DNA of 64,000 nucleotides from the NCBI GenBank assembly GCA_049287045.1, contig JBAQFC010000010.1, positions 78,179-142,178 of the forward strand. The letters run 5' to 3'. The notes under the pieces were generated by a model. It saw only the letters and a list, made by a program, of their open reading frames with translations. It did not search any database and had not been told where the DNA came from. Both the position numbers and the translations under genes were made by a program. The DNA comes from Minisyncoccia bacterium. GTDB taxonomy: Bacteria > Patescibacteriota > Minisyncoccia > Phycocordibacterales > UBA9973. Positions 1,080 through 54,298 of this stretch are shown here, one piece after another (positions within the stretch are counted from its first letter, which is position 1; each line of letters starts with the position of its first letter).

Positions 1080-1204
1080 TATCTAATAGATACTATGTCG
1101 CAAAGAACAGTTGTCCGACATTAAATCCCTTGTGAAATAAGGGTAAAATAGAAAAAAAAGGAAAATACTCTTGACATTTTAGAAATACAATGTTTTTTGT
1201 ATTG

Positions 1205-1400
1205 TGCCTGACTACAGAAACTGCCCGCTAAAGCAGTATAGGTCGGGCACAGCGGCCTGTGGAGAGATGGAAAGGATAACAAGTGATCATGTCTATAGAA
1301 CCTTGCAGTGTAGACACACGAGGATGAAATCTTACTCCCCAGACCGCTGTGAATGCGCATTTGCAGTGGGTCGTAATTATAAGGCAAGGATTGTAATTAT
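1205..1400 (+). ncRNA. Candidate structured non-coding RNA or cis-regulatory leader, identity unknown.
   Basis: Local GC about 50% against about 30% around it. Long-range 8-bp pairing CACAGCGG(1249-1256)/CCGCUGUG(1344-1351) encloses a domain. Nested hairpins GCCCG..CGGGC and UGUCUA..UAGACA, plus palindrome AATGCGCATT. A Bacteroidetes-like promoter 'TTGACA..TAttgTG' lies just upstream. The overlapping ORFs on both strands look spurious. Confidence 0.35.
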
Positions 1401-1661: not shown

Positions 1662-2126
1662 ATGATGCAACCCAGCACCACGCCTGTTCCTAATGTATTT
1701 TTTGATGTTCATTTAAAAGAATTAAAACAAGCGGAATTAAAAGTTCTGTTGGTGGTGATACGCCAAACACTTGGTTGGGCGGACAGGCGGGGAATGCTTG
1801 GTAGAAAAGAAATTGATTGGATTTCAGGAAGCCAGTTACAGCAAAAAACAGGAAACTCCAAACGTGCCATTACCATTGCAACCGATACATTAATCAGAAA
1901 AAAGTTAATTGAAATATTGGATGTAAATGGAAATATTTTAGATAATCCTGAAAAAAGACAAGGTAAAACAAAACTCTTTTACCGTCTTGCAAATCCTGTG
2001 AATACTCCTGTGGAAAAGCCTGTGAATAGCTATACAACTTACGCAAAATTTGCCGAGGACATAAGCAAAAAAGTAACAGCACTTGCGCAAAAAATGCTGA
2101 TAACAAAAGAAACTCTACAAAACTAA
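1662..2126 (+). CDS. Replication initiator-like HTH protein (phage replisome-organizer N-terminal-like).
   Basis: 'ELKVLLVVIRQTLGW...' resembles the phage replisome organizer / RepA N-terminal winged-HTH. Context is a mobile element. Confidence 0.45.
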   Translation: MMQPSTTPVPNVFFDVHLKELKQAELKVLLVVIRQTLGWADRRGMLGRKEIDWISGSQLQQKTGNSKRAITIATDTLIRKKLIEILDVNGNILDNPEKRQGKTKLFYRLANPVNTPVEKPVNSYTTYAKFAEDISKKVTALAQKMLITKETLQN

Positions 2127-2166
2127 ATCCTACAAAAGAATTTAATAATAAAAAAGAAAATTTTAA

Positions 2167-2547
2167 ATGAAAACAAAAAATAAAGAAAAAGAAAAAACAA
2201 TAACCATTGAAGCAGAACTGGCAATACCACTGGGAGAATTAGCAATTTACCTTTTGGTAAGAGGACAGGATGAAGCGGAAGTAAATACTGTGCTTTATCA
2301 AACAGAAGAAAAAGCAAACAAAGAAATCAGAAAAATTGCAAAAGAAGTTCTCATCAAGAAAAAATCAGAAGTGAAACTAAAATACCTAAAGTTTGACTAC
2401 AATGATTCGGACAAAATCTCTCATGGAGTGGCATATTTTAAAGTAAAAATTGAAGGTACAGAAAAAGCACTTAGAAAGATTGCCGGAGAAGATAGAATTT
2501 TTGAATATGATTGGGAAGAACATAACAAAACCAATATTAACAACTAA
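2167..2547 (+). CDS. Hypothetical protein (Lys/Glu-rich).
   Basis: ORF in operon with neighbours. No motif. Confidence 0.4.
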   Translation: MKTKNKEKEKTITIEAELAIPLGELAIYLLVRGQDEAEVNTVLYQTEEKANKEIRKIAKEVLIKKKSEVKLKYLKFDYNDSDKISHGVAYFKVKIEGTEKALRKIAGEDRIFEYDWEEHNKTNINN

Positions 2548-2562
2548 GAACAAAACCAATTA

Positions 2563-2835
2563 ATGCCAACAGAAAAAACTTACCCCTATACATTCGACCA
2601 GTTAAGACAATTCAAAAAAGAAATACAGGAAGCAGGAGGAGTAGATGAACTGATGTTCAGAAAAAGTGCTTTGAAAAGAAGAAACGGAATGATAAACATT
2701 GTTACCTATCCTGATATTGAACGATACAAAGAAAAATATTTAACAGGAGTATATGAATCACTTCGTCCTATTTATACAACAGAAGTACCTTATGTTTTCT
2801 GGAGTAAATTATACGAATTATTAAACAGAATATGA
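2563..2835 (+). CDS. Hypothetical protein.
   Basis: ORF. Its 4-nt overlap with the downstream methylase gene suggests translational coupling. Confidence 0.4.
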   Translation: MPTEKTYPYTFDQLRQFKKEIQEAGGVDELMFRKSALKRRNGMINIVTYPDIERYKEKYLTGVYESLRPIYTTEVPYVFWSKLYELLNRI

Positions 2836-3623
2836 AACCACCTTTAACATACTACGGAGGAAAACAACAGCTCTCTAAACACATTATTTCCCTTATACCT
2901 AAACACAACCTATATTGTGAACCTTTCTTTGGTGGTGGTGCGGTATTCTTCGCTAAAGAACCATCAGCAGTTGAAATAATCAACGATACCAATGGAGAAC
3001 TCATTAATTTTTATAAGGTTATCAAAACAAAATTCAGCCAGCTTGAAAAAGAAATCAGTTTGACACTACACAGCAGGGAATACCATCAGGCAGCAAAGAT
3101 TGCATTAGGTTACCCCCATTTGTTTGATGAAATAAAACGGGCATGGGCTGTTTGGACATCGGCAAACCAAAGCTTTGGTTCCATTCTCGGCGGTAATACC
3201 TGGAGATGCGATTTTAAACAAAATACTTCTGCCAGGCAGTTAAGAAATAAAAGAGAAAACTTCACTAACGAATATGCAAAACGATTAGAACAAACCCAGA
3301 TTGAATGCAGGGATGCTTTAGATGTTATTCGTTTAACAGACAACAAGGATACTTTCTTTTATATTGATCCGCCTTACTATAACTCTAATATGGGGCATTA
3401 TAAGGGATATACAAAAGAGAATTTTGAAAAATTACTTCAAGTGCTTTCCGGAATTAAAGGAAAATTTTTGTTAAGTTCCTACCCCTCTGAAATCCTTGAT
3501 AAGTACATCAAAAAACACAAATGGCAGACTAAAGAGATTGATAAACAGTTGTGTTTATCTGCTTATAAGATTGTGAAAAAGAAAAGAAAAATTGAGGTGC
3601 TGACGGGGAATTATGAGATATAG
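2832..3623 (+). CDS. dam: DNA adenine methyltransferase, Dam/D12 class (N6-adenine). Orphan, with no adjacent restriction enzyme.
   Basis: 'YYGGKQQL', 'EPFFGGGAVFF' (SAM-binding FxGxG) and catalytic 'DPPYY'. Confidence 0.85.
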   Translation: MKPPLTYYGGKQQLSKHIISLIPKHNLYCEPFFGGGAVFFAKEPSAVEIINDTNGELINFYKVIKTKFSQLEKEISLTLHSREYHQAAKIALGYPHLFDEIKRAWAVWTSANQSFGSILGGNTWRCDFKQNTSARQLRNKRENFTNEYAKRLEQTQIECRDALDVIRLTDNKDTFFYIDPPYYNSNMGHYKGYTKENFEKLLQVLSGIKGKFLLSSYPSEILDKYIKKHKWQTKEIDKQLCLSAYKIVKKKRKIEVLTGNYEI

Positions 3624-3632
3624 GTGAAGGAA

Positions 3633-3674
3633 TAAAAAATACAACCCGATTGCTCAGGTTGCATTGATGATATG
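3633..3674 (-). terminator. Hairpin terminator, copy A of a repeated hairpin family.
   Basis: 9-bp stem AATACAACC/GGTTGCATT with loop CGATTGCTCA. A U-tract follows on the minus strand. Near-identical to the hairpin at 4953-4990. Confidence 0.5.
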
Positions 3675-3684
3675 AAGAGGCTAA

Positions 3685-3975
3685 TTACTTCTTTAGAAGA
3701 AGGGAAATAAATTTTTCTTTCACGTTACTTAAAATATTGTAAAAAGTATTCTCATCTTCAAAATTGTAAGATTGTAATTTGTGAAGATGATCAATATCGT
3801 CTTTCCTGAAAAGGAATAGTTCAACAATAATTTTTTGATTTTCAAATTTCTTCCTCTTCTGTCTAGACAGATGTTGTGCCGGTTTGGAATAAACCTCAAT
3901 ATGATTGTTTTTTCTTTCTATGTTGAAGGGCAATTTATCAATTGCCACTTCTTGGGTTAAAGCTTCTTTTGCCAT
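3685..3975 (-). CDS. Hypothetical protein (96 aa), downstream partner of the membrane protein.
   Basis: ORF starts 6 nt after the upstream gene's stop. Confidence 0.4.
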   Translation of the reverse strand: MAKEALTQEVAIDKLPFNIERKNNHIEVYSKPAQHLSRQKRKKFENQKIIVELFLFRKDDIDHLHKLQSYNFEDENTFYNILSNVKEKFISLLLKK

Positions 3976-3980
3976 CGTTT

Positions 3981-4856
3981 TTATTTATTTTTGGATTTAT
4001 GACTATTTCTGATACAAATTATATCATAGATTCCGTCTGCTACACCCTGCAATATGGCTAAATCATATTTCTCGTCAAACATACTTTTTTCAGAACAATC
4101 GACACACAGGAAACCTAATAAGTTATAAACTTTGTCTTGTTCAATATGTAATGGAATTATAGGCACCACAAGTTCACTTTTATATGGCAATATGCCATCT
4201 ATATAGCATTCTTTGCTTGTGTTTTCATAGTCCTTTGAGGAAGGAATATCATTATTAATATAGTAAAGTTTTGATTTCTTGTTTTTAGTTAGATGGGATA
4301 AGATATTATTGAAACATGTATTTGCAAATATTAAATGTTGAGTGTTTTGATAAGTTTTAGTATCACGGTGTAACGAATTTTTATCTCTGCATAGATTTAC
4401 AACTTCGGTATTTGCTGTAATTACAGTCTCGATGGCGACTTTTATAGAAACTGAACATTTTGAATTCGTTTTTTTATCATAAATCAGTTTTAATTGGTGG
4501 CACATAAAAGCCATAGTTGCAATAAATTTATCATCAGGAATTTCATCAAGTTTACGAAGCCAGTGAACCCATGAAAACGCTTCTTTGAGGAAAATTATAG
4601 CATCACCATAAACACTCTCTTTGTATAGATAATACCAATACTTGTATATATGTTTAAAGAAAAAAAGGACAAATCGGAAAAGGTATATTCCCAAAACGCC
4701 TCCTAGTCCAATAACAATAGAATTTTGAGGTTTTTGATCAAAAAAATTCTTTGCAATAAGAAGAATAGCAATAACTGAACCCGCCCCTCCACCAATAAAA
4801 TTCCAAAATTTTTCAGATATAGTATCCTTAAATGATTTATAAAAAACTTCTCTCAT
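3981..4856 (-). CDS. Membrane protein with two N-terminal TM helices and a cytoplasmic C-terminal domain.
   Basis: Hydrophobic segments 'GGGAGSVIAILLIAKNFF' and 'IVIGLGGVLGIYLFRFVLFFF'. No recognisable catalytic motif. Confidence 0.45.
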   Translation of the reverse strand: MREVFYKSFKDTISEKFWNFIGGGAGSVIAILLIAKNFFDQKPQNSIVIGLGGVLGIYLFRFVLFFFKHIYKYWYYLYKESVYGDAIIFLKEAFSWVHWLRKLDEIPDDKFIATMAFMCHQLKLIYDKKTNSKCSVSIKVAIETVITANTEVVNLCRDKNSLHRDTKTYQNTQHLIFANTCFNNILSHLTKNKKSKLYYINNDIPSSKDYENTSKECYIDGILPYKSELVVPIIPLHIEQDKVYNLLGFLCVDCSEKSMFDEKYDLAILQGVADGIYDIICIRNSHKSKNK

Positions 4857-4952
4857 AATCTTATAATCCGCTTTTTTTGCAAGGTTGTAATTTTTTTTTA
4901 TTGATTGACATATTGTTAATAACTCGGCGGGTTATGTTAACATCATATTTAA

Positions 4953-4990
4953 AAAATGCCTCCCGATTTCTCAGGAGGCATTGATGATGC
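4953..4990 (-). terminator. Hairpin terminator, copy B of the repeated hairpin family.
   Basis: Perfect 9-bp stem AATGCCTCC/GGAGGCATT with loop CGATTTCTCA, followed by T6 on the minus strand. Confidence 0.55.
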
Positions 4991-7289: not shown

Positions 7290-9425
7290 ATGCCAAAAGT
7301 AAATGATTCATATAAAATCAATGTTGGAGCCTCTTTTTTGCCACTTGAGAAAGCAATTATAATTAAAGACTCCAATGTTTTCATTGATAATAAACACCAC
7401 GAAACTTATATTGAAATAGAAAATATTTCTGAACTAATTACAGAAGAAGAAACTGCAATAAAAAGTTTTCAAGAAAAACTATTTAATTTGCCAATTGACT
7501 CTGATACGAATCCTGTTGAAAATAGCTTGACTCCAATTCAAGAAATCAGCCCTGAAACAATTAAATTAGTTGCTCCAAATGATATTCAACCAGGTTTACT
7601 GAAAGAAGAACGAGAATTAATTGCCGCTGAAATTATCAAGAGAAGAGCAAAAATTGAATTATTATTACGAAGTAAAAACAATTTATTTTTAAAAATTAAA
7701 GATTTTGATTCTGCCACCATTATTGATTCTGCCTCTACCACAATTTCAAAGGCAGATTCGGAAATATTAAGACTTGGAACAGAGCTCAAAACGACCGAAG
7801 TAAAACATAATGAATTGAAGGCTTTACCAACTCCCGATGAACTTCAGAAAGTTGAGTTAACGAATTCCACACAAACCATTAATGATATTAAATTAAAAAT
7901 AAAGGATTTTGAGAACAAGAAAGTTGAATCTCAAAAACTTGTTGATGATCTAAAACAGCCTTTAATCGAAAAATATACAAAAGACATTTCTGAACTTCAC
8001 AAACATATATATGGCTTAATTCAAATTCCATTAATGAATTTTTTACCAAAAATTGTTTATTGGGAACATGGTGCAAAATATATATTGCAATCTGAGACAT
8101 TGTTTACGGAACTCCTTAATAAAACAAGCTTAGAAGATATTTCCAGACCACTTGTAAATGTTTTTAGAATCGGGTTGTATATTCATACAATCGAGGAACT
8201 AAAAGAAAAAATCATTGAAATCCAAATCGACCCTGGTGAGCGAAGCAGATATGAAGCTACTTTAAATGAAAAAATTAACAAGTATATTAAAAAAGTCTGG
8301 TGTGATTATGACCAAGATTTAAAAATTTCATTGGAAAAAGACCAAATTCGAATTCAAATTTTTGACCCAAGTAAAAATGGTGCAAGTTTCTATAATATGG
8401 AAGATAGAAGCCAAGGATGTAAAACATTTTTGTCTTTTTTATTAACTATTGGTGTAGAAGCGGAACATGGTGTAATTAAAAACACGATTCTTTTGTTAGA
8501 TGAACCAGAAACACACTTGCATCCTTCGGGAGTGAGATTTATGCTTCAAGAACTAATTAAAATATCAGAAAAGGGTAATTTAGTCATCTACGCAACCCAC
8601 TCGATATTTTTAATTGATAGAAATAAATTTGATAGACATGTTATTCTTAAAAAAGAAAAAGAGAATACTACTATTAAACCATCAAATGTTGGAAGAATTG
8701 GTTATTTCATGCAAGAGGAGGTATTGTATGGCACATTGGATTTCAATTTAAAAAATGATTTTTCATCTACAAATGAATATAATTTTGTATTCGAAGGCGA
8801 TGGGGATGTTATTCTCTTTGAACATTTTTATGACAAAATTCTTTCAAAAGATGCAAATAGACCTTATCAATTAAAATCAACTTCTTTCCATCAAGGAGGC
8901 AAATGTTCTGACATCCAAAAATATTTAACCAATAGACCAATTCAACTCGGAACAAAGTGGGTTTTTATCTTAGATAAAGACAATGCTGGAGATGGTCTTA
9001 AAAAATTCATAGAAGGAAAATATAAAAATTATTTAAATAGTGACATTTTTGTATTTCAATATGACAATAAGGGGAAGAAATCAAAAGAAATAGAGTTAGA
9101 GGATCTTTTTGCCCCACAATTTATAATAGAAACATATTTAGAGACTGCAAAACAGCTTACTTGTTCAATTGATGAAATCGCTTTAAAAAAACTTGTAACT
9201 GAAGATGACAATTATATTACTTACAATGATTCTATCATTTCAGATCATATTATTGGAGAAAGGAAGTCTGAATTTAAAGGAAAATTTAAAGAAATATTTA
9301 ATACAAAAATTAAATTAAGTTGTGAAGGGAATAAAAATGAGGTGAGTTTTAAAAAAATATTTCCGGAATATTACAAATGGGTAACAGAAGTTACTGCGAA
9401 ATTAAATTCCTGCAACAAAGCATGA
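7290..9425 (+). CDS. OLD-family ATP-dependent endonuclease: ABC-ATPase signature, Walker B and H-loop plus C-terminal TOPRIM. No Walker A in this ORF.
   Basis: Signature-like 'RSQGCKTFLSFLL'. Walker B 'LLLDEPETHLHP'. H-loop 'YATHS'. TOPRIM-like 'VFEGDGDV' and 'ILDKDNAGD'. Confidence 0.65.
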   Translation: MPKVNDSYKINVGASFLPLEKAIIIKDSNVFIDNKHHETYIEIENISELITEEETAIKSFQEKLFNLPIDSDTNPVENSLTPIQEISPETIKLVAPNDIQPGLLKEERELIAAEIIKRRAKIELLLRSKNNLFLKIKDFDSATIIDSASTTISKADSEILRLGTELKTTEVKHNELKALPTPDELQKVELTNSTQTINDIKLKIKDFENKKVESQKLVDDLKQPLIEKYTKDISELHKHIYGLIQIPLMNFLPKIVYWEHGAKYILQSETLFTELLNKTSLEDISRPLVNVFRIGLYIHTIEELKEKIIEIQIDPGERSRYEATLNEKINKYIKKVWCDYDQDLKISLEKDQIRIQIFDPSKNGASFYNMEDRSQGCKTFLSFLLTIGVEAEHGVIKNTILLLDEPETHLHPSGVRFMLQELIKISEKGNLVIYATHSIFLIDRNKFDRHVILKKEKENTTIKPSNVGRIGYFMQEEVLYGTLDFNLKNDFSSTNEYNFVFEGDGDVILFEHFYDKILSKDANRPYQLKSTSFHQGGKCSDIQKYLTNRPIQLGTKWVFILDKDNAGDGLKKFIEGKYKNYLNSDIFVFQYDNKGKKSKEIELEDLFAPQFIIETYLETAKQLTCSIDEIALKKLVTEDDNYITYNDSIISDHIIGERKSEFKGKFKEIFNTKIKLSCEGNKNEVSFKKIFPEYYKWVTEVTAKLNSCNKA

Positions 9426-9569: not shown

Positions 9570-11264
9570 TCATTGTAATAAAGATCGCCAATAATAAGGG
9601 AAAACCATTGTCCTATAATGTCGAGATGCAAGGAGCCCCATAAAAGGGAGTCCGTTTTTAAAAATTTCCAGTTCTAATTCAGGGCTTAAATTCTTCATAG
9701 AAATTTCTTGAACCATCTCGTCCTTATAGTCTTCTATGTTGTCATATAGTTCAATACTGTGTTTCGTTTTTCCGTGATTTTGATCTGAATTTTTAATGAA
9801 AAGTGATTTTTCAATTTCAATATCAGGATACCAGAGCTGGAGATTGATTTCAGGAAAATGTAATTTTACCATTCTCCGAATATCACTATATAAATCGGAT
9901 GAATTTAAAATTATACACCATTCAGCTAATACGGTCAATAAAATTGATGATTGAGGTTTTTCGGTTTCACCATAAACCTTTGCTTCAATTAATTTATCAT
10001 GGTTTTCATAAAATAATGGAAAAAAACTTGTTCTTGAATAAGTTATTTCCATTGTAATTATTATTCGCTTAAGCCATATCCTTATTGTATCTAAGCGATC
10101 TGTTTTATATAAAAATAAAAATCCTAAATTGATTTCTATGGAATGTGAATCATAAACTGGATAATTGCAACCAGCGTTGTTATTAATAAATTCGTCGATA
10201 GAATTTGAAAAAACTGAAATCATTGAATTAATACTATCCACATGAAATTTAATTACATCATTATTATCTTGAACTTTTAGGGTTTCCCCCAGGTAATAAT
10301 AATTTAATCCAATCGTTGACATAATACCAATATATTCGTAGCAAACTAAACTATACTCAGTCTGGTTTGCCCTAGACACGCTTGCAAACGAATCTTTAAC
10401 AGCGCAATATTTTATTGTTTTCTCGGCATACGAATGTTGGATATTTATGAGAGTTTCAGTTATCCCAATAAATTGTCGAATAAGTTTATTGTCATTCATA
10501 CCATGTTCCTCTAAAATAAATCTCCAGGCGAGCAAAGTCGCTTTTTCAGCAGTGAGCAAGGCATTCCTAATATTATTTTGTTCTTGCGCCCATACGAAAA
10601 TTATATTTGTACAAACATTGAGCAAACTTAATCTTTTATATTTTTCAGAAGTCTTAGCTTGAACAGATTTGTATTTAAATAAAATGTTATTAAAAAGTTC
10701 AACCACATGAGATAAATCATAATCACTAATGTCAATGAAAGCAAGGGACTTTCTTAGCAAAAGCAAAGAACTATCGGGGAGTAAGGATTCATTAAAAAGA
10801 TATTGTTCGGATAATAATGTTATTTTGTCTACATCCCAATCTACTAAATGGATTTTTTTCGTCGAATTTTTATTTTTATATCCATTCCATGCCGGAATTG
10901 CAGTCTGCTCAATAATTCCATTAAGAGCGAAAATAATTTTGATTGGTAGCTTTTTATATTCTTTTGCAATATTCGAGGGGATATATACATCAAATATATC
11001 ATCTAAGCTTGCTTTAATATCATTTTTACCTGAGTTCCAATTATTCCGGTCTAGATTACCTCTTTTCACTGAAAGTAAAAATATTTTTTTTATACCATCT
11101 TCTGGATCAATTCCAACGGCCATAATATCTACGCCATGTTGGCGGCCCTTTTGAGGGCGTGATTTGGGCTCCATATTCATATGAAACAATAGATTTACTA
11201 GTAGGGTATCTAGCTCACCATCTTCTTTCAAAATTGTTATATAGTCCTTAATAATTGCTTTCAT
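9570..11264 (-). CDS. Hypothetical 564-aa protein, second gene of a two-gene operon. N-terminus has a possible Mrr/PD-(D/E)xK-like fold.
   Basis: 'GRQHGVDIMAVG...KKIFLLSVKRG' resembles the D...(E/Q/S)xK nuclease core. ATGA start/stop overlap with the upstream gene at 11264. Confidence 0.45.
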   Translation of the reverse strand: MKAIIKDYITILKEDGELDTLLVNLLFHMNMEPKSRPQKGRQHGVDIMAVGIDPEDGIKKIFLLSVKRGNLDRNNWNSGKNDIKASLDDIFDVYIPSNIAKEYKKLPIKIIFALNGIIEQTAIPAWNGYKNKNSTKKIHLVDWDVDKITLLSEQYLFNESLLPDSSLLLLRKSLAFIDISDYDLSHVVELFNNILFKYKSVQAKTSEKYKRLSLLNVCTNIIFVWAQEQNNIRNALLTAEKATLLAWRFILEEHGMNDNKLIRQFIGITETLINIQHSYAEKTIKYCAVKDSFASVSRANQTEYSLVCYEYIGIMSTIGLNYYYLGETLKVQDNNDVIKFHVDSINSMISVFSNSIDEFINNNAGCNYPVYDSHSIEINLGFLFLYKTDRLDTIRIWLKRIIITMEITYSRTSFFPLFYENHDKLIEAKVYGETEKPQSSILLTVLAEWCIILNSSDLYSDIRRMVKLHFPEINLQLWYPDIEIEKSLFIKNSDQNHGKTKHSIELYDNIEDYKDEMVQEISMKNLSPELELEIFKNGLPFMGLLASRHYRTMVFPYYWRSLLQ

Positions 11265-13688: not shown

Positions 13689-16600
13689 ATGGGAATTATG
13701 ACTACAGATAAATGCTTTATTACTTCTTTGCCTGTTAAAAATATTCCATCCAATATTGATGCTTATGAGTATTTACTAAATTTTAATGACAGAGAATTTA
13801 CTCTTCGATATGATGGGAGAGCAGACTGGAATACAATAATAAAGGGAGATGCAAAGATTGTTCTCCAATCAATGTTATTTAATAACCGATGGCCTATTGA
13901 TACTGATTCTGTTATTACTCCGGAATTGGTTGAAAGAACCCTTCGTATTGTAAAACACCCAAAAGAATTTGAAGATAAAGTATCTTACTATTTAGAATAT
14001 GCATATGAAGCGGGTGGAAAAGAATATAATGCTGTTATTTATAAACTTTCTGATTATGAGATCGCCTACTCAAAAGATGAGAACGAATTTACTAGAATAA
14101 TTCAGGCACTCATCTCAAAACAATTTATTTCTCTTCTTCCTGCACACTCAAGTTCAGTTAAGGCAGAGGGTTCATTTGAATTGTTGGAGCCGGGGAGAGA
14201 TATGGTTAAAAATATTCAATCAAAAAGGCAACCAAAGATTATTACTATAACCCCTACGGGGAAAAAAATCATAAAAAAAATACACCTACCTCTTAACGAA
14301 CGTCCATCTATTCATATATGTTTTGTAGAATCGGATAAACCCATTGCCGAAAAACTCAGAGATCTTTTTTTAGAAAATAGCTTTACTACTTCATTAACAG
14401 AAATAAAAGAGGAAACATTGGCCTACTCAAGTGTATTTAATCTTAGAGATAGTATTGAACAACGAAAATCAAATTATTTTGTTTTTGTTAAAAGTCACTC
14501 GTCTGATATTAATAATGGTATAGGAAGTGCTATTGATATTGCTATTGCAACACATAGAAATTCCCCCGACAAAGCTAGATTTATATACATTGCGAGTGCA
14601 GATGATAGCAAATACAGCACAAGACCGTTATTAGAGGATTATTTAAAACAATTTTTTGATATCAGAATATTGGATGAGAGGGAAAGAATGCTTCTTGACA
14701 TATTCTCTGATTGGAAGACCAGACAGAACAAGATATTACCAGCAGAAAAACTAACTTCAACAGTCTTGCTGCTCAAATGGTTATGGAAAATATTTACTGT
14801 TTCGCAGAAAAATCCAATAACTATTACTTATTCTCAAATAAAAGAATTTATTAGTTCGGAAGAACAATTAAAATCATTCTTATCGGAACTTGAAAATCAA
14901 CAGCTCATCACAATGCAATTGTATGATGGGCTTGACGTTGATCAATATCGGTATGAGATCACACTAATGAATAATATACCTGATTGGCTGAGTAGGGAAA
15001 TTTCAAATATAGAGCAGTCTAATGCTGGGAAACTGAAAAGTATCAACGAAAGCAATAAAGTCTATAACTTTCCGAAAGTTTCACTTACAGACAATGAATT
15101 ATTTTGGTTGAAAATTTCGTATGAGAAATTTCTTAAGAATGAAACATTTAATTTGCATGAAGAACTTGCAAAACACTGGGATAAACTCCCAAAAGATTTT
15201 GACCCATCTCAGATTGACCAACGTCTTTTGATAGGTGGTTATACAATAACATTGCTTGGTATCTGGCACGTAAATCCTTCCTCTGAAATTTTTGGAAATA
15301 CTGACAAAACAATATTTATTATTCGTGAATTGCTTATAGAAAAAAGTAATCGGAATGTTATTACATCTAAAGATATTCAAGCTAAAAATTCTGCCTTAAC
15401 CAATGATGACATATTAAAAAGCATAACAATCCTTTCACAGTTCAGGGGTTTCATGCATCAACATGGACACAATCCAGAAACGTTTGAGTCTAATATATCA
15501 ATACGTGATGGTTCAAGTTATGATAAGTTCAGGCAGTACAATGGAATTGAAGAATTAGTGAATGAATTTTTTAAAAAGAATAAATCACAGTATTCTGATT
15601 CAAATGAAACAAACCAAAGCACAAAAGAATTTAAATTGAAAAATATAGTGGATTCTTTGAATTTAAATGATAGAGCATTTCAAAAAAAATCTCAAGTCAG
15701 TTTACGAGACAAAACACAAATCGATACTATATTAGGAGTCAAAGAAATTGCTAAAGAAATAGCTGAGATAATTGACATAATGCCAAATGAAAAAGGAATG
15801 ATGATGGGTATCTTTGGCAAATGGGGACGTGGTAAAACAGTTTTTATGTCTCAAATATGGGAAAACTTAAAGGAAATAAAGTTAAAAAACGAGGTACAAT
15901 ATGAAAGAGTGGATTTTCATGCATGGCAATATCAAGAAACCCCCGCTTCTTGGGCTTATTTGTATGAGCGTCTGGCAGAAAAATATTATAAAAAACCTGA
16001 AAAAATATTCACAAAAGATTGGTGGGAATATTGGAATAGGATTATAAAGCTAAATATTAAAAGGCAAGGATACACTCCCATTATTAAATCGATTTCTGTC
16101 ATTTTATTTGCTCTCTCTATTACAATTGGAGGAATAGCGCAATGGGAATGGGTATTTGCATTAATTGGTATTCCGATGGTTGGGTCAGCACTGATTGTAA
16201 TACTTTCAAAATTTAAAAAAGAGTATAGCACTAAGGCGTTTGATTTAATTAAAAAATATGGATTAAAGCATAGTTATAAGGATACTATGGGCATCCAAGC
16301 TGAAATTCAGAAAGAGGTTGTTCATTTAGTTAAAACATGGATTCCTGTGGTGAAGGTTGAAAAAGGCAGCTCGGATGAAAAGTATAAAAAAATAATTTTA
16401 TTTGTGGAAGATGTTGATCGTTGTGCTGAGGAAAAAATAATTCAAAACATAGATGCCCTGAGAATAATGTTGGAAGATGAAGAAGTAGCAAAGAGAGTTA
16501 TTGTAATTGCTGCTATTGATGAGCAAGTATTAAAAAGGGCGATCAAGGCAAAATATTTTAAACTTTTGGATTGCGAAAATTATTCTAACGGAGCGGGAAC

Positions 16601-17318
16601 AAATAAATTTGATGAACTTGCCAAGTTAACAAATGAATACTTAGACAAACTTTTTATAACAGGAATAAAACTTGGCACCCTGTCTGCGGAGCAACGGGAC
16701 GAATTTGTTGTTGAATTGACAAAACATGATAGACAAAATCTTTCAGTAAAAAAACTTTATGAAGATGAATTCCCTTCAGCGAGGTCAGAAAATAATGATC
16801 AGTTGGATTTTGCCACCATTGATGGAGATTTGGTATTTAAAGACGGGGATATTGCTCTCGAAAACCAAAAAGGGGAGATTAAAATAATTGAGCAGATACA
16901 AAAAAATAAAACCGTTACGCTTGAAAATTCAACTGAAACTGTAGCTTTTGAGAAACTGACAGATGGAGAAATAAGTATACTTAGAGGTTGTGTTAATGAT
17001 TGGGACGAAGCAACTCCAAGAAAAATTAGAATATTCTATTATCGGTATCTGATAGCAAAAAATTTATTACTAAATCGATACCAAAAACTAAGTTGGAAAA
17101 ATATATGGCTTCATCCGAAATACAGTAGCGTATTTGCCCAGCTTATTATTAAGTATGGTGAGTTATATAACCCTTCTCTAATCACGGAGCATAGATTGAG
17201 GACAAACACTTTGCCACTTAATGAAGTTGTAAAAATTGATATGTTTGGTGACTTTACCGTGAAAAACCAAGATTATATTGAAATGTTGAAAATTTTAGAA
17301 ATGGTAATTGCCTATTGA
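13689..17318 (+). CDS. KAP-family P-loop NTPase (1209 aa) with intra-domain TM helices and a long N-terminal extension containing a possible TIR-like segment.
   Basis: Walker A 'GKWGRGKT'. KAP-type Walker B 'ILFVEDVDRC'. TM insert 'ISVILFALSITIGGIAQWEWVFALIGIPMVGSALIVIL'. N-terminal 'SIHICFVESDKPIAEKL...NYFVFVKS' is flavodoxin/TIR-like (weak). Confidence 0.75.
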   Translation: MGIMTTDKCFITSLPVKNIPSNIDAYEYLLNFNDREFTLRYDGRADWNTIIKGDAKIVLQSMLFNNRWPIDTDSVITPELVERTLRIVKHPKEFEDKVSYYLEYAYEAGGKEYNAVIYKLSDYEIAYSKDENEFTRIIQALISKQFISLLPAHSSSVKAEGSFELLEPGRDMVKNIQSKRQPKIITITPTGKKIIKKIHLPLNERPSIHICFVESDKPIAEKLRDLFLENSFTTSLTEIKEETLAYSSVFNLRDSIEQRKSNYFVFVKSHSSDINNGIGSAIDIAIATHRNSPDKARFIYIASADDSKYSTRPLLEDYLKQFFDIRILDERERMLLDIFSDWKTRQNKILPAEKLTSTVLLLKWLWKIFTVSQKNPITITYSQIKEFISSEEQLKSFLSELENQQLITMQLYDGLDVDQYRYEITLMNNIPDWLSREISNIEQSNAGKLKSINESNKVYNFPKVSLTDNELFWLKISYEKFLKNETFNLHEELAKHWDKLPKDFDPSQIDQRLLIGGYTITLLGIWHVNPSSEIFGNTDKTIFIIRELLIEKSNRNVITSKDIQAKNSALTNDDILKSITILSQFRGFMHQHGHNPETFESNISIRDGSSYDKFRQYNGIEELVNEFFKKNKSQYSDSNETNQSTKEFKLKNIVDSLNLNDRAFQKKSQVSLRDKTQIDTILGVKEIAKEIAEIIDIMPNEKGMMMGIFGKWGRGKTVFMSQIWENLKEIKLKNEVQYERVDFHAWQYQETPASWAYLYERLAEKYYKKPEKIFTKDWWEYWNRIIKLNIKRQGYTPIIKSISVILFALSITIGGIAQWEWVFALIGIPMVGSALIVILSKFKKEYSTKAFDLIKKYGLKHSYKDTMGIQAEIQKEVVHLVKTWIPVVKVEKGSSDEKYKKIILFVEDVDRCAEEKIIQNIDALRIMLEDEEVAKRVIVIAAIDEQVLKRAIKAKYFKLLDCENYSNGAGTNKFDELAKLTNEYLDKLFITGIKLGTLSAEQRDEFVVELTKHDRQNLSVKKLYEDEFPSARSENNDQLDFATIDGDLVFKDGDIALENQKGEIKIIEQIQKNKTVTLENSTETVAFEKLTDGEISILRGCVNDWDEATPRKIRIFYYRYLIAKNLLLNRYQKLSWKNIWLHPKYSSVFAQLIIKYGELYNPSLITEHRLRTNTLPLNEVVKIDMFGDFTVKNQDYIEMLKILEMVIAY

Positions 17319-20904: not shown

Positions 20905-21183
20905 ATGACAGTCGAACTTATTTCATTAGACCACATCAATGAACAATACTTCCAATATGTTGACAAAAGGAGTTGTAAGAATTGGCTCTTAGCAAAAGGC
21001 TTATCAATAATAAAATTGGGAAAGAAATATTTTGTTAAGGAAGAGCAATTTAATGCAGTTCTAAATAGGATAAGCAACAGTGGTAAAACAATTTCAGCAG
21101 TAAAGTCTAAATCAGTAAAAAATCGATTAACACCATACAATGAAATCTATAATGACTTGCTGAGGAATCTAAACGATGTATAA
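20905..21183 (+). CDS. Excisionase-like HTH DNA-binding protein (Bacteroidetes mobile-element type).
   Basis: Small HTH protein ('NWLLAKGLSIIKLGKKYFV') directly upstream of, and overlapping, the integrase gene. Confidence 0.5.
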   Translation: MTVELISLDHINEQYFQYVDKRSCKNWLLAKGLSIIKLGKKYFVKEEQFNAVLNRISNSGKTISAVKSKSVKNRLTPYNEIYNDLLRNLNDV

Positions 21184-22603
21184 TGCCACACACCAAATGA
21201 GTAAACCGATTAAAATACCACAAAACATAAAAGGATTGAAATTATGGTGTCCGGCATGCAGTGAAGAAATCGGAACGACAAACAGGTGCAAGCAGACGGG
21301 TGGATTAGCGACAAAATGTCCAAATGCGGAACGCCATGTATACAGGGTAGTTGTATATGAACCGGGGAGTGGAAAGCGGAGGGTAAAAATAATTAAGGAA
21401 AAGAAAATGGATTTAGTGATAAAGGCAGCCGTTTTATTCAGGGATGAAATTAAAAACGGGAAATATATAGAGCAAGCTGAAATACCACATAATTATGAAG
21501 AAGAAAAAGGAAGTTTAAAATTAATAGAAGCGATGACTTTGTATAGCGCATTTTTAGATTGTAAGCATGGAGCAGCCCACACATTAAGGTCGAGAACGAT
21601 GGGTCACAAAAAAGAATTAATGCGAAGCATTATACTGTTTGCCAAGGCAATTAAAAAACAGGGAATCGATCCTGAACGGTTAAGAATTGAAAAAATAACA
21701 CAAGAGCATATAGGCTTTTACCACACATATTTATTGAGTGATAAAAAGTATTCCAACTGCACATATAACAATCGTATGAATAATTTGCGAGGATTCATTA
21801 ACTACCTGAACAAGCATGAAGGACTGGATATTAATAATCCCTTTAATACGGTTCAAAAAAAGCCAACCAGTACGATTATTAAAACAATTGAACCGGAAGA
21901 GTTTAATGCCTTACTAAACATCATTACACCTGGACGGGGCATACAAACATTATCAACAGGAGAGAAGAAAAATCATTGGCACCCCTTTCTAAAGGAATCT
22001 TACATATTAGGATTATTAACGGGTTTAAGAAGAGAACAGCTCGTTACCATGCGGTTCAAGGACATTCAGGAAGATGCCCAGGGAGTACCCCTGATTATCG
22101 CATCTAATAACCTAAAGGTAAATAGAATAATGAACGCGGAGGAAACAGGTGATATAAGAATTACCCCAACACCGGTAACGCCACAACTTCGCCAATTTTT
22201 AGAAGATGAATTAAATTATGCGGCGAATCGTGACAGTGATAATTTTCTGATAGCGCCCAATAGTGAACTTAAAAGAAAGACGATAATGGATATTATCAGT
22301 AAAAGTTTTACCCACTACTGGAAACAGCTTGATATGGATGTTTCAAAAGACATCAGTTTTGCAAACTTAAGAAAAACGTATATCACAAAAATGACATTGG
22401 CAGTAGGTGATAACGCTAGGCATCTGACAGGACATGCTAATCAGGAAGTATTAAACAAGCATTATATAAATAAAGAATTAATCGCACGTGTAGCAAGCAA
22501 TCATAACATTTTCCCTGAACTTGATATGGAAGCAATAAAAAGAAAAAACGAAATCGAAAAACTCAGATTACAACAACAACAAAATATTTCAAAAGACAGA
22601 TAA
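21176..22603 (+). CDS. Tyrosine site-specific integrase/recombinase.
   Basis: Box I 'TGLRREQL'. Box II 'LRKTYITKM...LTGHANQEVLNKHYI' supplies the R, H-x-x-R, H and Y catalytic residues. Confidence 0.85.
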   Translation: MYNATHQMSKPIKIPQNIKGLKLWCPACSEEIGTTNRCKQTGGLATKCPNAERHVYRVVVYEPGSGKRRVKIIKEKKMDLVIKAAVLFRDEIKNGKYIEQAEIPHNYEEEKGSLKLIEAMTLYSAFLDCKHGAAHTLRSRTMGHKKELMRSIILFAKAIKKQGIDPERLRIEKITQEHIGFYHTYLLSDKKYSNCTYNNRMNNLRGFINYLNKHEGLDINNPFNTVQKKPTSTIIKTIEPEEFNALLNIITPGRGIQTLSTGEKKNHWHPFLKESYILGLLTGLRREQLVTMRFKDIQEDAQGVPLIIASNNLKVNRIMNAEETGDIRITPTPVTPQLRQFLEDELNYAANRDSDNFLIAPNSELKRKTIMDIISKSFTHYWKQLDMDVSKDISFANLRKTYITKMTLAVGDNARHLTGHANQEVLNKHYINKELIARVASNHNIFPELDMEAIKRKNEIEKLRLQQQQNISKDR

Positions 22604-25378: not shown

Positions 25379-26833
25379 ATGATAACAAAAATCTTTGATA
25401 TGATTATATCTGTAATCGAAGGCACACTCAAAACTATCTTTGAAGTATTGGAATCAATGGTGAGCAGTCTGTCTTCAAAGCAAAACGAATACAAAGCGGA
25501 TTTTGCATCCCAAGGGACTTTACTTTCAAGCTGGAATAATGGTTTTTGTTTAACTGGAAATAAAAACCTTTCTTTAAAGCATTCTTTCCAAAATGCCCTG
25601 ATTATAGGAGGTACAGGAGCCGGTAAATCCAGTGTTGTATTAATACCTTGTCTTTTCTCAATGAAAGGATCTTTTATCGTCCATGATCCATCCGGTGAGT
25701 TATATACCAAAAGTGCGGGCTACCTAGAACAAAAAGGATACGAAATTAAAATATTGAATTTCGCACATCCTGAAATTTCTTCCAACTATAACCCATTATC
25801 AAGAGCAAAAAACTCTACCGATATACAAAAAGTTGCTTCCATGTTGGTCGAAAATTCATTAGGTGGGGGCAAGAAAGATCCTTTTTGGAATAATCTTGCC
25901 ATTTCATTAATAACCGTGCTGATTCAAATATTAAAGACTCAGCCTGAAGAATATCAGAATCTGTATAACGTGCGAAACCTTTTAAATTCCATGGGAGGCA
26001 ATCCCGAAGCAGTGGATGCGCTCTTTAGTAAGAATGCAAGTGAGAAATTATTTTATGAATATAAATCATTCCTGGCTTATGATGAAAAGGTTACCAGTGG
26101 AGTAATAGCCACATGCAAAGCTTCACTACAAATTTTCAATGATGAAAATATCGGTAAAGTAACATCAGGTGACAACATTCCATTTGAGGAGTTCAGAAAT
26201 AAACCGACTGTACTGTATATTCAAAACAGTGTAGCAGATCAGCGCTATTATAGTACCTTAACCAGTATCTTCTTTGAGCAACTATTTTCTTACACACTTT
26301 CCCGTTTTCCAAAACAAGATGAACAAAATATTTTCTTTCTGATTGATGAATGCAGTTCACTGCATTTACCAACGCTCGCGCTTGCTACGGCAAATGTGAG
26401 AAAACATAGTGCAGGAATAATGCTGATTATACAAGATTTTAATCAGATAGTTCATCATTATGGAAAATATGAAAGTGATGCAATCCGAGCAAATTGTTTC
26501 GCCAAATTATATTTTACCGGACAAAGTTTAGAAACAGCCAAAGAATTAGAACAAATATTAGGCAAATATGAATTCAAGGACAAAGATGAAAGAAAAGTTG
26601 TCCGACCATTGATGACCAATGATGAAATAAGAACAATGAAAGAAACTCGGGCAATTCTTGTCTGCGGACATTATCCACCAATTCTTGCAAAGCTTCATCC
26701 ATATTATAAAAGCATACGATACAGAAAGTACAGTTTAATTCCGCCCCCAACCAGTAAATCAGCAAATGACATTGATATTGTTCCAGTATTGCCATTACCC
26801 ATAACAGCAAAAATCAATGAGCAAAAAAAGTAA
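25379..26833 (+). CDS. Type IV coupling protein, TraG/TraD/VirD4 family (Bacteroides MobC-like).
   Basis: Walker A 'GGTGAGKSS'. Size and family-typical context upstream of the relaxase. Confidence 0.75.
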   Translation: MITKIFDMIISVIEGTLKTIFEVLESMVSSLSSKQNEYKADFASQGTLLSSWNNGFCLTGNKNLSLKHSFQNALIIGGTGAGKSSVVLIPCLFSMKGSFIVHDPSGELYTKSAGYLEQKGYEIKILNFAHPEISSNYNPLSRAKNSTDIQKVASMLVENSLGGGKKDPFWNNLAISLITVLIQILKTQPEEYQNLYNVRNLLNSMGGNPEAVDALFSKNASEKLFYEYKSFLAYDEKVTSGVIATCKASLQIFNDENIGKVTSGDNIPFEEFRNKPTVLYIQNSVADQRYYSTLTSIFFEQLFSYTLSRFPKQDEQNIFFLIDECSSLHLPTLALATANVRKHSAGIMLIIQDFNQIVHHYGKYESDAIRANCFAKLYFTGQSLETAKELEQILGKYEFKDKDERKVVRPLMTNDEIRTMKETRAILVCGHYPPILAKLHPYYKSIRYRKYSLIPPPTSKSANDIDIVPVLPLPITAKINEQKK

Positions 26834-53418: not shown

Positions 53419-54298
53419 ATTATTAATTTTTCTGCCTACTCTTTGTTCGGATTTTCGGTTTGCTCCAGTTATTATTTGTTATCCATTAGGTGTCTTTGTT
53501 GCATCTGCAATACTGTTCACCTCGTAAGGAACTATTCCTAATCCCATAATTACTTTAAACAAAAACAATAGTTTTTTAATGCTAAATAAATGGTATTGAA
53601 GATTAGTATTCATTTAGTTCTTTTCTTTATTCTCACCTAATTATTTTCCATTAAAACATCAGTTATTTATTCCAATTAACTTTTTTGTTAAAAATAACAT
53701 CTTTCCCATAAACTATTTAGCAATTTTTGTCAATGGATGGTCTAAATTCAGTTTTCTTTTTTTTATACCTCTACAAATGTATTTTCATTATAAAATAAAA
53801 AAATATAATTGGGAGTTAAGAAATATTTGTAGTTAATATTCTGTGGCTAAGTAACAATTATTTTTTCACTCAGGACAATTAATGTTTTTTATTTTTGTAA
53901 AAATTAAAAACATAATCTTCTGAATCGCTTTAATAGACTGGGTATTACTGTGTCGAAGTTTTTTTAAAATATTTTTATATTTTTTATTTGCTAAAAAAAG
54001 TTATCATGAGCATTCATCTGCAATAAATATTCACTGGTTCATTTTACGGCTACGTTTGATAAAAATATCATGACGTCTGTTCATTTCAGCAATCATATTT
54101 TGAAAAATTACATTAAGTTTATCAAAAAACAGATGTGGGTAATTTTTCATTGAAGATTTATTCTATATGATAAAAAGAAGACGTATTTAAAATGAGATTT
54201 ATTAGAGTTTGTCAAAGAAAATTAATTTGACAAGGATTGCATTATAACCGAGTAGCCGAAAACGGTATCAATAGTAGGCATTAAAATAATTAGTAACT

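Follow-up and report, generated by a model that had tools for sequence, protein, structure and literature searches.

The DNA analysed here, called the window below, is a 64,000-nt stretch of contig JBAQFC010000010.1 (NCBI GenBank assembly GCA_049287045.1), deposited under the name Minisyncoccia bacterium. Near its start, at positions 1204-1383, lies a GC-rich segment that we read, with a probability of roughly 0.6, as encoding a + strand structured RNA of an integrating mobile element, most likely the 5′ leader of an operon for a small protein (orf69), a RepO-like protein and a Dam methyltransferase, with a part in an RNA-RNA pairing circuit. The element is conserved among related loci in its structure and gene context, the + strand is the one that folds, and a short seed sequence in its interior is complementary to the loop of a hairpin in the leader of an integrase gene, the two changing together from lineage to lineage. 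The copy in the window is a short, partner-less variant of this larger family.

A conserved structured element on the sense strand

The segment had been described in an initial annotation, made from the sequence alone, as a GC-rich, structured, RNA-like block in an AT-rich genome. Its composition is as described, with ~48% GC across 1204-1383 compared with ~30% in the surroundings; in 100-nt windows over 1201-1400 the GC fraction is 0.45-0.48, against 0.20-0.37 in the flanking windows. Two open reading frames (ORFs) overlap the segment, at 1204-1437 on the + strand and 1121-1387 on the - strand, and had been suspected to be artefacts of composition. Neither has a Pfam match, 1- and 2-nt indels separate close relatives, and the substitutions relative to seven close relatives are split 78:87:81 over the codon positions. 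Coding-type conservation, suggested at the time as a check, was looked for among the homologues and three-nucleotide periodicity is absent, in agreement with the suspicion. The segment is neither a product of chance nor coding.

Known RNA families do not account for it either. Rfam 15, run on the whole window at gathering thresholds, gave no match in the segment; the best matches in 1050-1500 at E ≤ 10 were at chance level, and permissive thresholds applied to 12 related loci carrying the long form described below also left the element without a match. The families covered included tmRNA, RNase P, SRP, 6S, riboswitches, C4/IsrK, STAXI and HEARO, among others. ARAGORN found neither a tRNA nor a tmRNA in the segment. 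These scans confirm the earlier failure to match the segment to a known RNA by eye, and the description of a structured, RNA-like element that has no Rfam model stands. A blastn search of the segment against phage and plasmid collections gave no match, and an exact 24-mer from it is absent from viral contigs.

The element was traced through its downstream operon. The RepO-like protein has hundreds of homologues, and their alignment retrieved 80 metagenomic loci (given L numbers here), in ~35 of which iterated nhmmer searches placed a GC-rich segment upstream of the RepO-like gene; after further contigs had been added, nhmmer and a covariance model together found the element in more than 40 metagenomic loci. 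The order element, orf69, RepO-like gene, (orf126), orf90 and Dam gene is kept across the loci. In every locus the element shares the strand of the operon, and 20-55 nt separate its end from the orf69 start codon. The suggestion that the segment might be an element-associated RNA is upheld, as homologues travel with the orf69/RepO-like/Dam operon and lie directly 5′ of it, in the same sense, in related loci; the position expected of a cis-regulatory leader, another of the options first proposed, is found throughout. A retron-like RNA, also proposed, finds no support, since no locus has a reverse transcriptase in the conserved module, and no reverse transcriptase domain occurs among the part of the window's ORFs that was scanned.

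The histidine kinase encoded just upstream has relatives in reference genomes that are only ~30% identical (in Elusimicrobiota and others) and have no similar RNA downstream, which places the RNA with the island and not with the core genome. The element belongs to the mobile module, not to the chromosome. Exact-protein look-ups returned only the same locus in another sample, where an identical copy of the element is present (L001), and viral contigs hold no close relatives of orf69 or the RepO-like protein.

Folded by itself, the segment has z-scores of -2.5 (+ strand) and -2.2 (- strand), values that are weak taken alone. Because this excess over shuffled sequences is mild, the case for structure rests on comparative data. 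In a model-guided alignment of 31 copies, 93.9% of the cells at paired positions can pair, compared with 86.0% in column shuffles, none of 500 of which reached the observed value; sliding the 3′ partners by 1-3 columns lowers pairing to 33-40%. Both sides have changed at 20 pairs of this alignment, and RNAalifold recovers helices P1, P3, P3a and P3b with 18 of 32 pairs compensated. The covariance model gives + strand copies 60-210 bits and their reverse strands 13-51 bits, and the window copy reaches 59.6 bits (E = 3e-13). The strand preference is also seen in the wobble pairs, with 83 G.U cells compared with 9 A.C cells and pairing of 93.9% on the + strand against 85.3% on the - strand. This excess of G.U over A.C indicates that the sense strand folds as a single strand, most simply as RNA. 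The proposed check by covariation supports the helices, among them the long-range 8-bp helix CACAGCGG/CCGCUGUG that had been noticed by eye. This helix is real and forms the base of a longer stem of 14-22 bp, P1. Its arms were located at 1248-1255 (CACAGCGG) and 1344-1351 (CCGCTGTG), and in P1 AGCGGCCTGTGGAG (1251-1264) pairs with CTCCCCAGACCGCT (1335-1348).

Most copies are of a long form of 190-245 nt in which P1 encloses a three-way junction. The arms of P1 are near-invariant in this form (AGCGGYCUGUGGAR / YUCCAYAGACCGCU) and are extended by covarying pairs. After the 5′ arm come a variable hairpin, the three-way junction and another variable hairpin. The junction is built from a GCAUUG/CAAUGC stem, two hairpins, the first of them small, and a joining strand rich in purines, for example GGAACGAAC; its hairpin P3a is often capped by GNRA-type loops (GAAA, GUAA). 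On the 3′ side of P1 follow a 3′ hairpin and then a GGUCG...AUUAU tail.

The window copy has the short form, which we defined from nine sequences (the window, L017, L097, L100, L105, L107, L018, L041 and L058). It comprises a 5′ hairpin H0, P1 around a single hairpin H1 in place of the junction, the 3′ hairpin and the tail; 97.1% of cells pair in these nine sequences, with compensatory changes in H0, P1 and H1. In the window, H0 occupies 1204-1250, where GUGCCUGAC pairs with GUCGGGCAC below an apical CUGC/GCAG stem and the conserved loop CCGCUAAA. It is 100% paired in 9 sequences, with one compensatory pair (C-G to A-U, L100) and G-C to G.U changes, and is limited to the short-form lineage and L023. 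The 5′ arm of P1, AGCGGCCUGUGGAG (1251-1264), is near-invariant in the family with covariation at several positions; CACAGCGG (1248-1255) overlaps it, and it pairs with the 3′ arm CUCCCCAGACCGCU at 1335-1348. H1 (1283-1319) is a GUCUAUA/UGUAGAC hairpin (1291-1315) closed by GUG/CAC, with the seed CUUGCAG (1302-1308) in its loop; its stem is compensated in L107, L018 and L041 (GCCUAU/GUAGGC), and an unrelated hairpin stands at its position in L058. In the 3′ hairpin (1346-1367) GCUGUGAAU pairs with AUUUGCAGU around a GCGC loop. The first three bases of this hairpin (GCU) lie in the P1 3′ arm, so the hairpin competes with the base of P1, including the 8-bp helix. Of 31 family copies, 27 form an uninterrupted 3′-hairpin stem of 4 bp or more and 25 one of 5 bp or more, and stem positions 4-7 covary. 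The conserved tail, GGGUCGUAAUUAUAAG, follows at 1368-1383. All of these features are on the + strand.

Directly upstream, at 1171-1202 on the + strand, the window has a TTGACA hexamer (1171-1176) and a small ATACAA/TTGTAT hairpin with a T-run (1185-1202), at the place where relatives have a terminator-like hairpin just upstream of the element. The hexamer had been taken as part of a Bacteroidetes-like promoter. That assignment is not supported, as no + strand promoter passes a scan and the hexamer is not kept in relatives, which have TTCAAA, TTCAAT or nothing in its place.

Complementarity to the integrase leader

Nearly all related loci have, upstream of the element on the same strand, a gene for a ~292-aa tyrosine integrase; the 64-kb window has no homologue of it. 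A GC-rich hairpin with a U-rich run behind it stops 5-12 nt short of the integrase start codon in 23 of 24 loci, and the exception, L046, has an apparently misassigned start codon. This hairpin lies at L097:4300-4366, at L033:1365-1405 and at the equivalent place in 20 other loci, and is absent from the window. By its appearance it may act as an attenuator, or it may terminate a leader RNA of ~110 nt whose promoter would be TTGACA...TATAAT-like. RNAduplex energies between hairpin and elements were too noisy to use, owing to the GC-rich stems, and exact complements and their positions were analysed instead.

Of 21 loci that have both an integrase leader and the element, 19 place the hairpin's longest Watson-Crick complement within the element at the homologous seed position. 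In the other two, L018 and L100, another 7-mer ties as the top match and the seed complement is present too. On the hairpin side the match is in the loop, and on the element side it is in the joining strand of the junction (long form) or the H1 loop (short form). A second copy of the seed lies 125-190 nt upstream of the integrase start codon, inside a stand-alone three-way junction. This junction of ~50 nt, for example CCGUUGCCCUUAAAUGGGACUCUCCUUAACCGGAGCGGAACGAACAACGG, has the same design and the same lineage-specific seed as the junction of the long form. It was located at L033:1195-1242, L056:1147-1194, L040:1151-1201, L046:1008-1059, L036:1157-1208, L025:164-215, L029:372-423, L019:1073-1120 and L101:3781-3831, has no Rfam match and is absent from the window. 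The short-form lineages have a different junction upstream of the integrase (CCAUUUAU...GUCUUGCAGAUAAAUGG). By eye, sigma-70-like promoters lie on the 5′ side of the stand-alone junction and in the interval from there to the integrase-leader hairpin; a scan recovered these partly, and sigma-70-like matches in such scans are not enriched over chance.

Eight seed variants, among them GGAACGAAC, GGAGACAAAC and CUUGCAG, co-vary in two or three places, the copies changing together by lineage. The seed GGAACGAAC meets the loop complement GUUCGUUCC in many loci, GGAAACGAAC meets GUUCGUUUCC in L029, and AGGAGACAAAC meets GUUUGUCUCCU in L101. GAAACAA(A) is matched by (U)UUGUUUC in L047 and AGACUAA by UUAGUCU in L050, while AUGCGAG and CUCGCAU form the pair in L106, which has a different, 355-aa integrase. 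In L051 and L053, where no element is present, the seed ACACGAA is found with UUCGUGU. The short-form pairs are CUUGCAG with CUGCAAG (L097, L100) and CUUACAG with CUGUAAG (L107, L018, L041); the window has the CUUGCAG type of seed without the integrase-leader loop. When each loop was compared with the interior of each element, a lineage's own pair was the row maximum in 8 of 8 lineages, and the window element matched the L097-type loop. Register shifts in L044 and L056 and a G.U replacement in L040 leave ~10 bp of pairing in place, which indicates that what is kept is the length of pairing and not sequence identity. The hairpin arms on either side of the partner motif are anywhere from 6 to 16 nt apart, and together with the register shifts this variation favours RNA-RNA pairing over a recombinase core site. 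A literature search returned nothing relevant on an integrase-leader/antisense system of this kind.

Proposed circuit, alternatives and related systems

We infer transcription of the element, the direction of regulation and a switch between P1 and the 3′ hairpin along the following lines. The long closing stem P1 holds out the seed as a short single strand, and pairing of the loop with the seed would couple expression of the integrase with that of the replication/anti-restriction operon. The integrase-leader hairpin, acting in cis on long transcripts or in trans as a short terminated RNA, would bind the operon leader and shift the balance between P1 and the overlapping 3′ hairpin, with a change in read-through or in translation of orf69. 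The lineage-specific seeds may act as determinants of specificity or immunity. The window, with a seed and neither integrase nor partner hairpin, would then hold an orphan copy, unregulated or vestigial.

A more far-reaching version, which we put forward tentatively and with the odds somewhat against it, is that integrating elements with defence cargo, as a widespread family, couple excision and integration with replication through a same-strand RNA pairing code of three sites and no protein repressor. The three sites would be the seed upstream of the integrase, the loop of the attenuator hairpin at the integrase start and the seed in the operon leader, and the seeds of 7-11 nt could be freely evolving addresses for immunity or incompatibility. 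If this were true, the stand-alone three-way junction that holds the seed would be a new RNA motif.

Several observations weigh against a leader with a pairing circuit. No sigma-70 pattern and no Bacteroidota -33/-7 pattern fits upstream of the element, and in many loci a terminator-like hairpin stands immediately upstream of P1. Simple helix formation does not account for the near-invariance of P1. The GGUCG tail could plausibly pair with GACC of the P1 3′ arm in most lineages, but L035, where the tail does not co-vary with P1, contradicts this. The three seed copies are also short inverted DNA repeats, which would fit a reading at the DNA level. The element is dispensable in L051 and L053, where a plain terminator-like hairpin replaces it (L051:2480-2760, L053:2100-2380) and the integrase and its leader, the stand-alone junction, the 1095-type motif described below and the orf69 operon are all present; the two loci amount to a natural deletion control. 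The seed match of the short-form lineage spans just 7 nt, a length reached in 2-8% of shuffles, so support there rests on position and one compensatory variant. For the window seed, CCUUGCAG (1301-1308), there is no complementary site anywhere in the 64 kb. That the window copy is an orphan short form lowers what this locus can teach by itself.

The most serious of the alternatives, to which we give a modest share of the probability, is an independent gene for a trans-acting small RNA, whose seed would act on the integrase-leader hairpin, for example by blocking or permitting integrase expression, with the orf69 promoter in or after the GGUCG...AUUAU tail. The seed/loop complementarity applies to such an RNA equally well. 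In L047, moreover, a terminator-like hairpin with a U-run separates P1 from the tail, L089 shows an additional hairpin at this place, and the tail travels with orf69 where hairpins are inserted. However, the gap between element and orf69 is free of hairpin insertions in 29 of 31 copies, with L047 alone having a terminator-like one, and the distance from the GGUCG tail to the AUG is roughly constant even with inserted hairpins, which speaks for a leader rather than a separate gene. In addition, the tail is missing where the element is missing (L051, L053), and a scan of its + strand found no promoter-like site.

We regard as improbable a reading in which the segment works as DNA, either with the P1 arms and the repeated 7-11 bp motifs as sites for protein binding or recombination (operators, inverted repeats that flank an integrase cassette able to invert or excise, an origin, or an attachment (att) region) or through a structure in single-stranded DNA (ssDNA) that serves after transfer, such as an Frpo/ssi promoter or a single-strand origin. 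The P1 arms argue for it, being almost invariant, which is unusual for a purely structural helix, as do the inverted repeats of the seed copies and the sigma-70-like promoter between the upstream copy and the integrase-leader hairpin. The window encodes a coupling protein of a type IV secretion system (T4SS), the nearby motif at 1095-1121 marks the junction with the chromosome, and an orphan Dam methylase follows the element, in the way that anti-defence genes follow Frpo promoters (PMC11541004). The wobble pairs point the other way, since with 83 G.U and 9 A.C cells on the sense strand it is the template strand of an Frpo-type promoter that would carry the mismatches. The stem also lacks -35/-10 hexamers, the interior helices covary and carry GNRA loops, arm spacers that vary from 6 to 16 nt do not fit a recombinase core site, and register shifts preserve the length of pairing and not identity.

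Less probable again is a riboswitch-like or protein-binding leader in which the junction is an aptamer for a metabolite or for a protein of the element, such as orf69, the choice between P1 and the 3′ hairpin is the expression platform, and the complementarity to the integrase leader is secondary. A multi-helix core closed by P1, conserved purines in the junction and an alternative 3′ hairpin with some of its bases in P1 are what such a leader would have, and the same junction motif stands upstream of a second transcription unit, the integrase. The apparently conserved junction strand nevertheless differs by lineage and co-varies with the integrase-leader loop, the window-type variant has no junction yet keeps P1, the 3′ hairpin and the seed, and no Rfam riboswitch matches. 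Least probable is a decaying remnant that has no present function in this genome and keeps its hairpins by descent, for although the 64-kb window has neither the partner hairpin nor the integrase, and L051 and L053 do without the element, an independent sample holds an identical copy (L001), and all short-form helices and the downstream operon are intact.

The proposed pairing circuit can be set beside several described systems. In the immunity of the satellite phage P4, the CI RNA, which contains seqB, pairs with seqA and seqC and causes transcription to terminate prematurely, ahead of the replication genes (PMC4825925). P4 and the present elements alike integrate and encode an integrase and replication genes, and in both an untranslated leader RNA acts as regulator of a replication operon, a role that is proposed here (PMC4825925). 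In both, too, one central sequence is complementary to two sequences on the same strand, one upstream and one downstream; here this is seen in relatives, in eight co-varying variants, while in the window itself the arrangement is lacking, the central partner being absent from the 64 kb. The differences from P4 are substantial. There is no similarity in sequence or structure and no C4- or IsrK-type match in Rfam, the central sequence here is the loop of a terminator-like hairpin before the integrase start, the whole integrase gene separates it from the downstream site, and the flanking sites are displayed on three-way junctions or on a hairpin loop inside a long closing stem.

In plasmid control by kissing loops (R1 CopA/CopT, attenuation in pT181 and pIP501, ColE1 RNA I/II), sequences exposed in loops start pairing with a structured replication leader, alternative folds of the leader decide read-through, and seeds define specificity groups. 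The plasmid antisense RNAs are encoded on the opposite strand and are fully complementary, whereas the partners here are on the same strand, kilobases apart, and share 7-11 nt. In lambda, sib is one RNase III hairpin that works in cis at the 3′ end of the int message. The present element resembles it as an RNA with a long stem downstream of an integrase, beyond a conserved, possibly attachment, site, and differs in standing before another operon and in matching the integrase's 5′ leader. Among described systems these three come nearest, P4 CI RNA and kissing-loop attenuation in function and lambda sib in position; since homology is absent, the element belongs to none of them.

Two further likenesses are in form and setting. 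The Frpo/ssi ssDNA promoters are imperfect hairpins of ~200 nt upstream of anti-restriction genes in the leading regions of conjugative elements (PMC11541004), and here too a long imperfect hairpin of ~200 nt lies upstream of an orphan methylase in a mobile element; the stem here (AGCGGCCTGTGGAG, CTCCCCAGACCGCT) has no promoter hexamers, and the wobble asymmetry is that of the sense and not the template strand. As in retrons, inverted repeats enclose nested hairpins beside defence-type cargo, whereas the neighbours here are orf69, the RepO-like gene, small ORFs and Dam, with no reverse transcriptase gene, and Rfam gives no retron-type (msr/msd) match. RNA-RNA control in mobile elements is already known; the RNA motifs that would carry it here are uncatalogued.

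If the circuit is real, it would be a second, unrelated example, beside P4, of RNA-only control of immunity and induction in integrating elements, found in uncultured environmental bacteria and linked to islands with anti-phage cargo. With it would come two or more RNA motifs that no catalogue lists, among them the P1-enclosed leader and the ~50-nt three-way-junction seed holder, together with a built-in specificity code of eight natural seed/loop variants. For annotation, the element explains a recurrent GC-rich 'intergenic' block at the start of such islands, and its recognition would stop two spurious ORF calls.

Module boundary, operon genes and other features of the window

The histidine-kinase gene upstream ends with a stop codon at 1077-1079, and homology to the mobile module begins at 1095, 16 nt past it, which agrees with the initial placement of the segment at an island boundary just after this gene. 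A small hairpin read from the sequence, AGTATCT-AAT-AGATACT (1078-1094, + strand), adjoins the stop codon, and a comparable hairpin can be seen by eye just 5′ of the motif ATGTCG-N15-CGACAT in related loci. In the window this motif is unique, lies at 1095-1121 on the + strand and provides the first base of module homology; from 1095 onward the window is colinear with the integrase-carrying relatives L018 and L107. Most loci keep the motif 100-130 nt upstream of the element, as two sequence types, and L051 has a compensatory ACGTCG/CGACGT version. In L055 a motif of the 1095 type directly follows chromosomal genes (ribosomal protein L27 and a CAP-like ORF), and seven loci have an inverted copy, TTGTGCGACAC, ~285 nt 5′ of the integrase start. 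The 1095-1121 motif may be an att site or an operator. No tRNA or tmRNA that could have served as integration target was found in the window or in 23 loci, and the other end of the island was not found in the window.

The first gene of the operon, orf69 (1424-1633, + strand), encodes a protein with 47-87% identity to those downstream of the element in the loci examined. These proteins have 62-70 aa and invariant residues D5, C7, T8, W22, G26, R39, F41 and P44, and always follow the element. An AlphaFold2 (AF2) model of orf69 has a predicted local distance difference test (pLDDT) score of 85 and a four-strand all-beta fold. The model matches no fold in the PDB at E < 1, and the protein has no match in Pfam, PHROGs or NCBIfam. 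We considered orf69 as an RNA- or ssDNA-binding protein and set this aside, as the confident model came without a fold or family match. The rest of the operon (1662-3623, + strand; assigned by Pfam, PHROGs and synteny) consists of the gene for the RepO-like helix-turn-helix protein at 1662-2126, ORFs of 126 and 90 aa and the gene for a D12-class Dam methyltransferase at 2832-3623.

Anti-phage-type cargo and conjugation genes follow the operon. They encode an AAA_21 ATPase (7290-9425), a 1209-aa KAP-family NTPase (13689-17318), a 475-aa tyrosine recombinase (21176-22603) and a T4SS coupling protein (25379-26833), and given this mixed cargo the island is probably a composite of a defence island and a conjugative element. 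Just after the Dam gene, a 39-nt direct repeat with 85% identity (3633-3671 and 4950-4988; also present in L097 near 9946-9999) brackets two minus-strand ORFs at 3685-3975 and 3981-4856. Its internal hairpin keeps pairing by compensation (CAACC/GGTTG versus CCTCC/GGAGG), and the repeat may be the boundary of a cargo cassette or a bidirectional terminator. Further along, Rfam places a DUF805b RNA at 53433-53468 on the - strand with 35.7 bits, compared with a gathering score of 35.6, and a DUF805 match below threshold occurs in a related locus (L056:102-169). Two proteins, encoded at 29940-32768 and 34988-37546, have C-terminal sorting domains of the type IX secretion system (T9SS), which are typical of Bacteroidota. 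The identical RepO-like protein is labelled at NCBI as belonging to a 'Minisyncoccia bacterium' metagenome-assembled genome, and more distant homologues are labelled Bacteroidia or Lentimicrobiaceae; the T9SS domains and the Minisyncoccia label may reflect a conflict of binning or taxonomy.

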